NCBI GenBank assembly: GCA_035533335.1 | Contig: DATLUC010000031.1 | Coordinates: 45,814-109,813, forward strand | Length of the DNA stretch: 64,000 nucleotides | Reading direction: 5' to 3' | From: Candidatus Baltobacterales bacterium | Lineage (GTDB): Bacteria > Chloroflexota > Dormibacteria > Dormibacterales > Dormibacteraceae | Shown here: in pieces, positions 2,380 to 27,929 of the stretch | Layout: each line of letters begins with the position of its first letter | Position numbering within the stretch: the stretch's first letter is position 1 | Translations under genes and position numbers: made by a program | Notes under the pieces: generated by a model | Database searches by the model: none | Seen by the model: only the letters and a program-made list of their open reading frames with translations | What the model was told of the DNA's origin: nothing

Positions 2380-2571
2380 CGCCAGCCATCCTATCCGTCA
2401 CAGCTCGCAGGAGCGCCGCACTTGAGTTTGCTGCGGCCATCCCGCTAAGGTGAATCCAGTGGGGACATGCTGACCCGCCGCCGTGCGGTGGACCATTGCC
2501 GGTGCTCATCGGCGCTCTGTACTTGCTGCGCTCCCGTTTTCTTTTGACGCAGCATTTCAAGGAGGTTTCTG

Positions 2572-3081
2572 ATGAGTGTCACAGACGAGCTGGTTCAAAA
2601 CAACGAGGCTTATTCCCGTTCGTTCAAGATGGCCGATCTGTCGATGCCGCCGGCCAAAAGTGTGGCCGTTCTCGCCTGCATGGACGCGAGGCTCGACGTG
2701 CACAAGATCCTCGGCCTGCAGGTGGGCGAGGCGCACGTCATCCGCAATGCCGGCGGCGTCGCCACCGATGATGCCATCCGTTCGCTGGTCATCTCGCAGC
2801 GCCTGCTGGGCACCAAGGAGATCGTGCTGATCCACCACACGGACTGCGGGATGCTGACCTTCAAGGACGACGAGCTCAAGGGCCAGATCGAGAAGGAGAC
2901 CGGGATCCGCCCGCCGTTTGCGCTGGAGGCGTTCAGCAGCCTCGAGGGGGACGTGGAGCAGTCGATCGCCCGCATCAAGGCAAGTCCGTTCATTCCCAAC
3001 AAGTCGAGCGTTCGGGGCTTTGTCTATGACGTCAAGACTGGACGCCTGAACGAAGTCAAGGTCACCGTGGCCGTCCGCTGA
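2572..3081 (+). CDS. Beta-class carbonic anhydrase
   Basis: 169 aa with zinc-ligand motifs CMDARLD and HHTDCGM. AAGGAGG Shine-Dalgarno lies 7 nt upstream of the ATG. Confidence 0.9.
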   Translation: MSVTDELVQNNEAYSRSFKMADLSMPPAKSVAVLACMDARLDVHKILGLQVGEAHVIRNAGGVATDDAIRSLVISQRLLGTKEIVLIHHTDCGMLTFKDDELKGQIEKETGIRPPFALEAFSSLEGDVEQSIARIKASPFIPNKSSVRGFVYDVKTGRLNEVKVTVAVR

Positions 3082-3156
3082 CCGAAGAAGTCCTGTTGGG
3101 GCGCCTGGGCTCGCACAGTCCGGGCGCCCCCGTGCCGTCGCCTAAGCTTTCGTCCG

Positions 3157-3408
3157 ATGAGGCTGGCCGTGGGCAACGTTTTGTCGTGGCTCGTCACGGG
3201 GTTGTTCGGCGTCATCACACTCGCCCTCGCCTTCGAAAGCTGGGCGCTGCTCACGGGCCATACCCCGATCACCGACTACGTGCGGCCGGCCGTCCATTCG
3301 TACCCAGGGGTGGCCTTCTTCATCGCAGTCGTGATCGGCCTGCTGCTCGGCCACTTCCTGTGGGGCCCGGCCTGGGGTAGGACCTCGCCGTCGGGCGACC
3401 GGCCGTGA
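3157..3408 (+). CDS. Small two-TM membrane protein, unknown family (paralog 1)
   Basis: 83-aa ORF with high GC3. It shares the C-terminal motif AVVIGLLLGHFLW with the next ORF. Confidence 0.5.
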   Translation: MRLAVGNVLSWLVTGLFGVITLALAFESWALLTGHTPITDYVRPAVHSYPGVAFFIAVVIGLLLGHFLWGPAWGRTSPSGDRP

Positions 3409-13946: not shown

Positions 13947-14657
13947 ATGGCGAACGTGATCGACCGCAAGCGGCTGCAGCAGATGGTCGCCGCCGGCGCG
14001 CAGCTCGTCGAGGTGCTCCCGGCCAAGGAGTACGCCGAGGACCACCTGCCCGGCGCTGTCAGCCATCCGCTCCGCCAGCTGGAAAAGGAGTCCGCCCAGA
14101 TCGACCGCAACCGCCCCGTCATCGTGTACTGCTGGGATGCTGCTTGAGACCTGGCACCCAGGGCCGCGGCGCGGCTCGAGGCGATGGGATTCCGGGAGAT
14201 CCACGAGTACAGGGCCGGCAAGCTCGACTGGCTTGCGGCAGGCCTGCCGACCGAAGGCGACAACTCTCAACGGCCGCGTGCCGCCACGGCGGCGCGCAAA
14301 GACGTGCCTACCTGCGGACCGGATGAGCGCCTGGGGGACGTTCGCGCGCGATCCGAAGCGGCGCGATGGGCCGCCACTGTCGTGGTGGACGACATCGGCG
14401 TTGTGCTCGGGCTGTTGCGCGCCAAAGAGCTCGCGATGGGAGATGACCTCCGGGTCGCCGAGGCGATGCGGCCGGGGCCGAGCACCTTCCGCCCTTACGT
14501 CCCCATCAAGGAGATGGCGGATTACATGACCCACCACAACCTCGAGAGCGCGCCGGTGACAACCTCCGACGGCAAGCTGGTGGGACTGCTCCTGCGCTCC
14601 GAAGCAATCGACCTCGCCGCCGGCTGCGACGACTGTGCCCGCAAGATGATCAGCTAG
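13947..14657 (+). CDS. Rhodanese domain + CBS-pair protein interrupted by one in-frame TGA (14145-14147); candidate selenoprotein, or else a pseudogene
   Basis: Track ORFs 13947..14147 and 14184..14657 are in the same frame, separated only by one TGA. Read-through gives VIVYCWDAA-[TGA]-DLAPRAAARLEAMGFREIHEYRAGKLDWLAAGLPTEG (rhodanese), followed by two CBS motifs. Confidence 0.6.
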
Positions 14658-24906: not shown

Positions 24907-24972
24907 GGCGCCGCCTCGAGGGATCGAATGAAGCGCCGCTATGATCGAAAAGTGATCTCGCCTTTACACGAC

Positions 24973-25233
24973 GTGCGCATCGAATATTGCGTCCCTTGAG
25001 ACTACCTTGACCAGGCCGTGAGCCTGGCCGGCGAGCTGCTGAGCCGCTGGGCGCCCATCATGCGGGCGGTCGAGCTGCAGAGTGGGAGCAAGGGCCGTTT
25101 CGAGGTGTCGCTCGACGGCAGCCTGGTGTTCAGCAAGGAGACCGCCGGGCGCTTCCCCAAACCCGGCGAGGTGGCTGCTCTGTTCGAGAAGAAGCTCGGG
25201 CCGGCGCTCGACTGGCGGCAGTCTTCGACCTGA
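24973..25233 (+). CDS. SelW/Rdx-family thioredoxin-fold protein with an in-frame TGA in the CxxU position (candidate selenoprotein)
   Basis: The track shows only 25018..25233. The same frame from GTG 24973 reads MRIEYCVP-[TGA 24997-24999]-DYLDQAVSLAGELLSRWAPIMRAVELQSGSKGRFEVSLDGSLVFSKETAGRFPKPGEV... Total length would be 86 aa. Confidence 0.75.
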
Positions 25234-26097: not shown

Positions 26098-26928
26098 GTG
26101 AAGTTCGGCATCGCGATCTTTCCGACCGACTACGCGATCTCGATGACGGAGCTCGGACCTGCCGTCGAGGATCGCGGCTTCGAGTCGCTTTGGGTCGCGG
26201 AGCACTCTCACATCCCGGCCAGCCGGGAATCGAAGTGGCCGGGCGGAGCCGATCTGCCCAAGCAGTACTGGCACTCCATGGACCCCTTCATCGCGCTGAC
26301 AGTGGCCGCCGCAGCCACCAGGAAGCTCCTGATCGCCACCGGCATCTGCCTTGTCATCCAGCGCGACACCATCCAGACCGCCAAGCAGGTGGCAAGCCTT
26401 GACTTCGTATCAGGCGGGCGCTTCATCTTCGGGGTCGGCGCAGGTTGGAACCGCGAGGAGATGGCCGACCACGGCACGGATTTCAGCACTCGCTGGACGC
26501 TGCTGCGCGAGAAGGTCGAGGCGATGAAGGCGATCTGGACGCAGGACCAAGCCGAGTACCACGGCTCGATGGTCGATTTCGGCCCGATGTGGGCCTGGCC
26601 CAGGCCGGTCCAGAAACCTCACCCGCCGATCGTCCTCGGGGGCAGCGGCCCCAAGATCCTCGAGCGAGTGGTGCGCTACGCCGATGGATGGATGCCCAAC
26701 CGCGGCGATGTCATCGAGCGAATCCCGGAGCTGCAGGAGCTGGCCAAAGCCGCCGGCCGCTCGCCCATCCCTGTCAGCTACTACCCCAAGCCCGATGCCG
26801 CGGAGATCGAGCGTCTCGCCAAGGCCGGCGTCGAAAGGCTCATCTACTACGTCCCGCCCGATGGTCGCGATGTGGCGCTGGCCAAGCTGGACGAGCTGGC
26901 CGAGATGGTCCGCCCCTACCTCGGCTAG
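26098..26928 (+). CDS. LLM-class (luciferase-like) F420-dependent oxidoreductase
   Basis: 276 aa starting MKFGIAIFPTDY, with ESLWVAEHSHIP and GVGAGWNREE, typical of the F420-dependent LLM subfamily. GTG start. Confidence 0.85.
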   Translation: MKFGIAIFPTDYAISMTELGPAVEDRGFESLWVAEHSHIPASRESKWPGGADLPKQYWHSMDPFIALTVAAAATRKLLIATGICLVIQRDTIQTAKQVASLDFVSGGRFIFGVGAGWNREEMADHGTDFSTRWTLLREKVEAMKAIWTQDQAEYHGSMVDFGPMWAWPRPVQKPHPPIVLGGSGPKILERVVRYADGWMPNRGDVIERIPELQELAKAAGRSPIPVSYYPKPDAAEIERLAKAGVERLIYYVPPDGRDVALAKLDELAEMVRPYLG

Positions 26929-27929
26929 CGACCTTCCAGCAGGGTGCGCGGGATGGAATCCCACGTGCCGCCGGTCCGCCTGAAGGCGATCCCGGACAGC
27001 ATCTCGAGCACCACCCGGTTCGCGAGGAACGAGGTGATCTCGGCGGAGTCGTAGGCCGGGGCGACCTCGACCACGTCCACGCCGACCACGGGCAGCTCGA
27101 TCGCGATGCGCCGCACGGCGTCGAGGAGCTGGCGGCCCGTGAGTCCACCCGGCTCAGGGGTCCCGGTCCCCGGCGCCATGCCGGGGTCGACCACGTCGAG
27201 GTCCACGGAAACGAAGACGCCGTCGCAATCGTCGACGGCGATGGCGAAGGCCTCCTCGAGTACCGCGTCGAGCCCGCGCGAGACGACCTCGTGCATCTCG
27301 AAGGACCGCATCCCCTGCTCGGCCATCCACTGCAGGGTCGGCGGCTCGGGCCAGTAGCCCCGCAGGCCGACCTGGAGGAAGCGGTCGCCGCGACAAGCGC
27401 CCGACTCGATCAGGCGGCGCATGGGAAGGCCGTGGCCGATGAGGCTGCCGAACTGGATGTCGCCCGTGTCGGCGTGGGCGTCGAAGTGGATCACGGAGAC
27501 CCTGCCCCAGCCCCTGGCGCGTGCCACTCCGGTGACGTCTGGCCAGGTGATGGTGTGGTCGCCGCCGAGAACCAGGGGGATCGCGCCCGCGTCGGCGGCG
27601 GCCTGCACGGCACGCTCGAGCGCATCCAGCGCGGCACGTCCCTCGACGCCCGGCATCTCGATGTCGCCCGCGTCCACCACCCGCATGTCGCGGAGCGGGT
27701 CGACGCGCAGCGCGAGGTGAGGTCGCGACGAGTCGTGCGGCAGCTAGTCGGTGGTGCGGATCAGCCGGGGCCCGAACCGCGCGCCGGCGCGGTACAAGGT
27801 CCCTGCGTCGTAGGGCGCTCCGATGATCACGACGTCCGCGCCCTCGAAGGTCGAGCGGTCCTCGAGGTCGCACCGGTCGACCCCTAAAAAGGTCACGTCC
27901 GGGCCGTACATGCCTCCGAGGCGCGGCAC
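26925..27929 (-). pseudogene. Agmatinase/ureohydrolase-family gene with an in-frame amber codon (TAG at 27744-27746)
   Basis: Track ORFs 27744..27929 and 26925..27686 are in the same frame. Manual translation across the gap gives GARFGPRLIRTTD-[TAG]-LPHDSSRPHLALRVDPLRDMRVVDAGD. The Mn-binding motifs (GGDHTIT, HFDAHADT, SVDLDVVDP) lie downstream of the stop. Confidence 0.8.

Follow-up and report, generated by a model that had tools for sequence, protein, structure and literature searches.

The SelW-like gene and its in-frame TGA

The window, by which we mean the whole 64-kb stretch of DNA analyzed here, has a GC content of 67% and carries a candidate SelW-like/Rdx selenoprotein coding sequence at 24952..25233 (+). 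The coding sequence, delimited by Pfam and TIGR matches and by a gapless ortholog alignment, consists of 93 codons and a terminal TGA (25231-25233), and it is interrupted at 24997..24999 (+) by an in-frame TGA that falls in the Sec/Cys column of the homologs and is read here as selenocysteine (residue 16). Translated from 24952 with read-through of this codon, the predicted product is MISPLHDVRIEYCVPUDYLDQ...WRQSST. The putative CxxU redox motif, TGC GTC CCT TGA (24988..24999, +), would encode Cys13-Val-Pro-Sec16; it is invariant among the relatives and aligns with the CTQC of the bacterial Rdx structures 3DEX and 2FA8. The ORF list contains only a 71-aa fragment (25018..25233, +) that starts at a GTG and that we regard as an artefactual truncated call.

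The preliminary description of this DNA had reported the 71-aa entry, a single stop codon (TGA 24997-24999) crossed when the same frame is read upstream, and the translation V/M-RIEYCVP-TGA-DYLDQAV from GTG 24973, and each of these was confirmed on the sequence. The proposal that GTG 24973 is the start codon did not hold, given that relatives have GCG, GCC or ATC at this position and that the conserved start is GTG 24952, seven codons upstream. Fifteen codons before the TGA, the 84 distinct gene sequences that we aligned have ATG (36), GTG (46), TTG (1) or CTG (1). Another potential start, ATG 24928, is preceded by GAGGGA but was rejected, as it is absent even from the 95%-identical relative L002. 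A Shine-Dalgarno sequence is absent upstream of GTG 24952, and a sigma-70 consensus scan found no full promoter upstream of the gene. A putative -10 box, TATGAT, is located at 24940..24945 (+), 6 nt before the start codon; TATGAT or TATCAT occupies the equivalent position in relatives without an abutting upstream gene. The location of this element suggests that it might serve as the -10 box of a leaderless transcript.

The assignment of the gene to the Rdx/SelW family, as proposed earlier, was borne out by two profiles that scored above their curated cut-offs. With U written as C, the protein matched PF10262 (Rdx) with 66.7 bits against a cut-off of 22.6 (E=2.2e-18; profile positions 2-71 of 74), and TIGR02174 (CXXU_selWTH) with 55.7-55.9 bits against 34.2. 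The score against the Campylobacter-type equivalog NF041051 (SelTWH_Campy), 74.9-75.9 bits, is below the cut-off of 88, and together these results place the gene in the broad family, outside that equivalog. Residues 5-85 matched the bacterial Rdx structures 3DEX, 2FA8, 2OKA, 2OBK, 2OJL and 2P0G (E=7e-9 to 7e-5), and around the redox motif IEY-C-VP-U-DY of the window protein aligns with IEY-C-TQ-C-RW of 3DEX and IRY-C-TQ-C-NW of 2FA8. Homology to these solved structures points to a thioredoxin-like fold for the predicted product.

Conservation on both sides of the TGA

Related loci were collected from a genome scan (32 loci) and a metagenome scan (80 loci). The codon aligned with 24997-24999 is TGA in 97 of them, TGT in five and TGC in two. 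TGA is found in each of the 22 Dormibacterota-type genome loci and in all 74 metagenome loci (of the 80) in which the motif search located the codon. The 97 TGA loci are mostly from Candidatus Dormibacterota MAGs and soil metagenomes; TGA is also found at the same codon in a planctomycete locus and in a Burkholderiales locus, the latter outside the 97 counted. The seven homologs with TGT or TGC, from Anaerolineae, Chloroflexota and Demequina, are 40-46% identical to the window protein and read IEYCVPCDY. The homolog alignment thus agrees with the earlier placement of the TGA in the CxxC/CxxU column, which is occupied by TGT or TGC in the Cys-type homologs and by the second Cys of CTQC in 3DEX and 2FA8.

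Between the codon 15 positions before the TGA and the end of the gene, the alignment of the 84 distinct sequences contains no gaps. Mean entropy at codon positions 1, 2 and 3 was 0.39, 0.45 and 0.97 upstream of the TGA (codons -14 to -1) and 0.60, 0.43 and 1.11 downstream of it. IEYCVP is invariant and C-V-P-TGA is present in all 84 sequences, the codons of this segment showing synonymous changes only (TGC/TGT, GTC/GTT/GTA/GTG, CCT/CCC). As judged from this alignment, the codons upstream of the TGA are under protein-level purifying selection, with the third-position-dominated variation of coding sequence. Elsewhere in the window TGA terminates about half of the high-GC3 ORFs, at least 19 of which have Pfam support, and the SelW-like gene itself also ends in TGA. 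UGA is therefore an ordinary stop codon in this genome, and any recoding must be local.

A SECIS-like hairpin downstream of the TGA

A hairpin of the bacterial SECIS (bSECIS) type is located at 25011..25027 (+), with the stem CCAGGC/GCCUGG and the loop CGUGA (25017-25021), and was recovered in MFE folds of 71-nt and 48-nt contexts as well as by its conservation. It had been described as a perfect 6-bp GC stem 11 nt after the TGA; the pairing and the spacer (25000-25010) were reproduced, but the stem is not all-GC, as it consists of five G-C pairs and one A-U pair. An additional pair, G25009-C25028, may close the hairpin below a bulged A25010. The bSECIS consensus has a loop of 3-9 nt, an upper stem of 4-16 bp, a G within the first two loop positions that is usually followed by G or U, a UGA-to-loop spacing of 16-37 nt and an MFE of -7.5 kcal/mol or lower (PMC13188914). 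The hairpin agrees with this model throughout, having a 5-nt loop, a 6-bp stem, a spacing of 17 nt and an MFE of -11.1 kcal/mol (25006-25032), and G at the second loop position followed by U, and the SECIS-like geometry suggested previously was thereby upheld.

Of the 1572 TGA triplets in the window, 4.3% are followed by a perfect hairpin with 6 bp or more in a permissive SECIS geometry. The fold energy is also unremarkable when compared with shuffled sequences (z = -0.8 to -1.7) and is not exceptional for sequence of 67% GC. The hairpin alone is weak evidence, and it is the comparative data that make the case. In a set of 73 distinct 48-nt sequences, standard pairs account for 98.2% of cells at the hairpin positions, and eight cells are unpaired. 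One-sided changes that retain a standard pair number 46, every one of them a G-U wobble, and compensatory covariation is absent from the hairpin in these 73 sequences, with one double change, a number equaled by the shuffles. The codons inside the hairpin vary little: the Ala codon is GCC in 84/84 sequences, the Val codon is GTG in 71 and GTC in 13, and the third base of the Leu codon is G in 84/84. Third-position entropy at these conserved 4-fold codons is 0.00, 0.62 and 0.00, compared to 0.26-1.89 at 14 such codons elsewhere (Mann-Whitney one-sided p=0.007 for lower entropy within the hairpin). On this comparison, synonymous variation is suppressed over the hairpin codons, a pattern indicative of RNA-level constraint.

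We also considered other folds of the region. A 4-bp extension of the lower stem (alignment columns 10-13 with 32-35) was rejected as unconserved, since two of its pairs are not formed in 42-43 of the 73 cells. In a 39-nt context, the window sequence folds slightly better in another register (GGCCG/UGGCC, 6-nt loop), which relies on 3' flanking sequence that is not constant among the relatives. A search of the whole window found no Rfam family at gathering thresholds and gave only meaningless sub-threshold matches around the gene; as far as these searches show, Rfam has no matching bacterial SECIS model.

A divergent clade of SelW-like loci (L095-L105, L107 and L111; 48-65% identity) reads U-N-Y instead of U-D-Y. 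The equivalent of the hairpin at 25011-25027 is poorly kept in this clade, and a fold is present 3-4 nt further downstream (GGCCGUC/GGUCU/GGCGGCU; alignment columns 18-36). The shifted hairpin fits the divergent clade only and was rejected as a general element. From the alignments, this looks like SECIS turnover inside one colinear ortholog family.

A rhodanese-CBS gene with an in-frame TGA

A second selenoprotein candidate, encoding a rhodanese domain and a CBS pair (Pfam Rhodanese and CBS matches), is located at 13947..14657 (+), at a distance of 11 kb from the SelW-like gene. Its in-frame TGA (14145-14147, +) corresponds to residue 67 in a Cys-aligned column and would give the motif C62-x4-U67 (YC62-WDAA-U67-DLAPR). 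The preliminary description had pointed to this TGA as lying at a cysteine position, and the alignment supports the claim: Cys is found in 13 of the 15 full-length homologs that cover the column, a count that leaves out one aligned sequence gapped there. Relatives that are 65-66% identical share the TGA and the 21 nt downstream of it, AGGGCCGCGGCGCGGCTCGAG, without any change, and their flanking codons differ. This shared stretch folds into a 7-bp hairpin (14161-14167, loop GGC, 14171-14177), 20 nt after the UGA.

Close relatives of this gene are stored as ~167-aa 'CBS domain-containing protein' entries, and other close relatives are split into a 67-aa rhodanese piece and a 167-aa piece. The scores against the two rhodanese selenoprotein models were far below their cut-offs (NF041203, 24.1 vs 115; NF045694 (TsoB), 24.3 vs 805). 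Five forms of rhodanese-type selenoproteins have been described, for which the motifs UxxS, UxxG, CxU and UxxxxU are listed (PMC13188914). The window gene differs from these known proteins in having C-x4-U fused to a CBS pair, which is outside the five listed forms, and it may be an undescribed form of rhodanese selenoprotein. A scan of the window for further in-frame TGAs with coding-like flanks found only the one at 14145. Two independent Sec/Cys pairs on one contig provide good indirect evidence that the organism decodes Sec.

Search for the selenocysteine machinery

A Pfam scan of ~50 ORFs and ARAGORN did not detect selA, selB, selD or tRNA-Sec in the 64-kb window, and none of them was found within ~10 kb past either end of the window. 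Using E. coli SelA, SelB and SelD as tblastn queries against the window and 113 loci (~0.56 Mb of related loci), we recovered no Sec gene; the sole match, a SelB-like sequence in L105, is a TypA/BipA GTPase and was discarded. ARAGORN detected no tRNA-Sec in 32 loci. For the loci obtained after the tblastn search, Sec genes were checked through precomputed Pfam labels and ARAGORN only. The DNA covered is a small part of the genome, and the absence of the Sec machinery from it therefore neither supports nor refutes Sec decoding.

Genomic neighborhood and public annotation

The closest genome loci are from Candidatus Dormibacterota MAGs. The order of the genes around the SelW-like gene, MerR/response regulator, KaiC-like ATPase, Peptidase_S11, SelW-like, HD_5 and luciferase-like, recurs in relatives. 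Many of the relatives have a DUF6855 gene (PF21619, E=1e-71; L015 5567-5980) between Peptidase_S11 and the SelW-like gene. DUF6855 is also present at the equivalent spot in L005, L006, L008-L010, L013, L014, L019 and L022, and it is absent from that spot in the lineage of the window. Where present, its stop codon overlaps the start codon of the SelW-like gene as ATGA, an arrangement that suggests possible translational coupling of the two genes. Copies with 76-83% identity occur in MAGs labelled Verrucomicrobiia, Eisenbacteria, Nitrosotalea (an archaeon) and Acidoferrum (L011, L018, L020 and L022), and these four labels likely reflect mis-binned contigs rather than horizontal transfer.

Two other stop codons in the window were considered with regard to recoding. 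An arginase/agmatinase-family gene at 26925-27929 (-) contains an in-frame TAG at 27744-27746 (IRTTD*LPHD). At this codon, five relatives (L004, L010, L013, L014 and L015) have TAC or TAT (Tyr), and the TAG is shared by the near-identical contig L001. As the codon is TAG and not TGA and relatives have Tyr, we consider it a lineage-specific nonsense mutation or a sign of a pseudogene, and reject recoding. The beta-carbonic anhydrase ORF at 2548..3081 (+) ends in a TGA (3079-3081) that is followed by an in-frame, high-GC3 open stretch at 3082-3408. Downstream of this TGA the translation does not look homologous, and in a relative two small ORFs are called in this region; the stretch is probably due to chance or to small membrane-protein genes rather than to recoding.

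The expectation that gene callers truncate the SelW-like gene was confirmed, in that the database holds an identical 71-aa fragment and the best 120 relatives are all 68-72 aa in length. The SelW-like clade (at least 97 loci, and the best 120 protein clusters) is thus stored publicly as fragments that lack the active site, and the value of the present analysis for annotation lies in this observation. The same misannotation applies to the rhodanese-CBS gene, stored as 'CBS domain-containing protein'.

Interpretation of the in-frame TGA

The membership of the gene in the Rdx family, the position of the TGA in the Sec/Cys column, the coding constraint on either side of the codon and the conservation of the hairpin with its frozen synonymous sites are all evident from sequence comparison. 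On these grounds, 24952..25233 is very probably a genuine SelW-like selenoprotein gene in which the UGA at 24997-24999 is decoded as selenocysteine. The product would be a 93-residue SelW-like (Rdx) thiol/selenol oxidoreductase with a Cys13-x-x-Sec16 center at the strand-to-helix junction of a thioredoxin-like fold. By analogy with E. coli, the hairpin at 25011-25027 would act as a bacterial SECIS whose CGUGA loop presents a G-U dinucleotide, and it would bring SelB·GTP·Sec-tRNA(Sec) to a ribosome that has this UGA in its A site. Seventy-eight codons further on, a second UGA (25231-25233) lacks such an element and would lead to termination. The protein might then cycle between a selenenylsulfide and a reduced selenol/thiol form, reducing some substrate. 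The incorporation of selenium, the dependence on SelB and tRNA-Sec, and the redox function and its substrate are inferred.

The annotation of every public contig by gene callers corresponds to a different reading, in which the TGA is a true stop, the 71-aa Rdx fragment from GTG 25018 is the functional protein and 24952-24999 is a uORF or leader. That fragment is devoid of the redox motif of the family, and its GTG start codon is replaced by GTC, which is no start codon, in 13 of the 84 relatives. The 15 upstream codons evolve like the remaining protein and extend the Rdx match from profile position 2, and the Cys-type homologs are translated straight through the TGA column, leaving this reading with very little credibility. 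An inactivated gene, in which a Cys codon (TGC or TGT) has mutated to TGA, was considered because TGY to TGA takes a single transition or transversion and the window does contain one real nonsense mutation, the TAG at 27744-27746. That mutation is restricted to the window's own lineage, whereas the TGA of the SelW-like gene never varies among 97 loci whose proteins have diverged to 50% identity, and selection against amino-acid change persists on both sides of it in 84 distinct sequences, which are hence not one clonal sequence; we accord a pseudogene the lowest probability of the readings considered here. The comparative data across the TGA therefore exclude both the truncated protein and the pseudogene.

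The identity of the inserted amino acid has to be weighed separately, as a conserved TGA, a hairpin and Cys homologs do not specify it. The UGA might be recoded to Cys through a tRNA-Sec-like tRNA with SelB and the SECIS, or the hairpin might stimulate near-cognate read-through with Trp or Cys. Mukai and co-workers reportedly described such a tRNA in 2016 as recoding Sec to Cys, and the failure to observe Sec synthesis genes in the DNA covered would be compatible with an amino acid other than Sec. Such recoding has a low prior, and direct encoding of Cys, as in the Cys-type homologs, would carry no cost. In addition, the rhodanese-CBS gene has the same pattern, and CxxU in PF10262 is a canonical Sec site (PMC1088965, PMC13188914). 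Non-Sec recoding is for these reasons improbable, if a little less so than the two readings above, and selenocysteine is the residue that we favor at position 16.

Implications

Decoding of the UGA as selenocysteine would imply that Dormibacterota, which are abundant, uncultured bacteria of soil and permafrost, need selenium and carry the Sec machinery, and this is a testable prediction. Such a selenium dependence could guide the choice of cultivation media. Existing knowledge of selenoproteins and of UGA recoding is unchanged by the SelW-like gene. A wider proposal combines three parts, namely that Sec decoding is a conserved, undocumented trait of Dormibacterota, with the SelW-like gene truncated in essentially every public annotation; that the rhodanese-CBS gene (C-x4-U) is a sixth, undescribed rhodanese form; and that in one SelW-like clade the SECIS shifted downstream by 3-4 nt while the protein stayed colinear. 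We put these parts forward together only tentatively, and we are more inclined to doubt than to expect that all of them will hold.

Comparison with known systems

SelW-like selenoproteins of prokaryotes have been known since 2005 (PMC1088965), and the window gene is one more member. With 48 genes, the SelW-like CxxU proteins ranked first in abundance among the selenoprotein families of the Sargasso Sea data (Zhang et al. 2005, PMC1088965), and SelW-like selenoproteins were reported in Deltaproteobacteria, Clostridia and Actinobacteria (Zhang et al. 2006, PMC1794560). A 2026 review lists SelW-like PF10262/CxxU as 'predicted with high confidence' and includes rhodanese-related sulfurtransferases among the known selenoprotein families (PMC13188914). 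A literature search for papers linking Dormibacterota to selenoproteins found no such paper, and the recent database BSepDB (PMC13326102) may already contain Dormibacterota entries.

The window gene resembles the prokaryotic SelW-like genes in belonging to the same Pfam family, in having CxxU right after the first strand and one Sec, and in the existence of Cys homologs. A small hairpin with a G in its apical loop directly follows the UGA in both, and gene callers routinely miss such genes. It differs from them in its host, Candidatus Dormibacterota/Baltobacterales soil MAGs, and in a 7-residue N-terminal extension of the window protein, MISPLHD, before the first strand. The Cys-type Rdx proteins SAV_2001 (3DEX), Atu0228 (2FA8), 2OKA, 2OBK, 2OJL and 2P0G are homologous, and their CxxC aligns with C13-x-x-U16. 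These solved proteins differ in having Cys at the TGA site, with CTQC in place of the CVPU of the window, and the identity is low, with scores of 26-39 bits.

With respect to the RNA element, the gene is similar to the E. coli fdhF-type SECIS/SelB system in that the hairpin lies just after the UGA, within the coding sequence, and has a G-U in its loop at a suitable distance. Unlike in fdhF, the stem in the window is much shorter (6 bp) and has no conserved lower stem, and here the role of SelB is putative. Mammalian SELENOW shares the Rdx fold family and has its CxxU at the same structural position, but the sequence relationship is distant, and its SECIS, a 3' UTR element, is structurally unrelated. 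A eukaryotic-type SECIS is neither present in nor needed by the window gene, where the putative element directly follows the UGA within the coding sequence.
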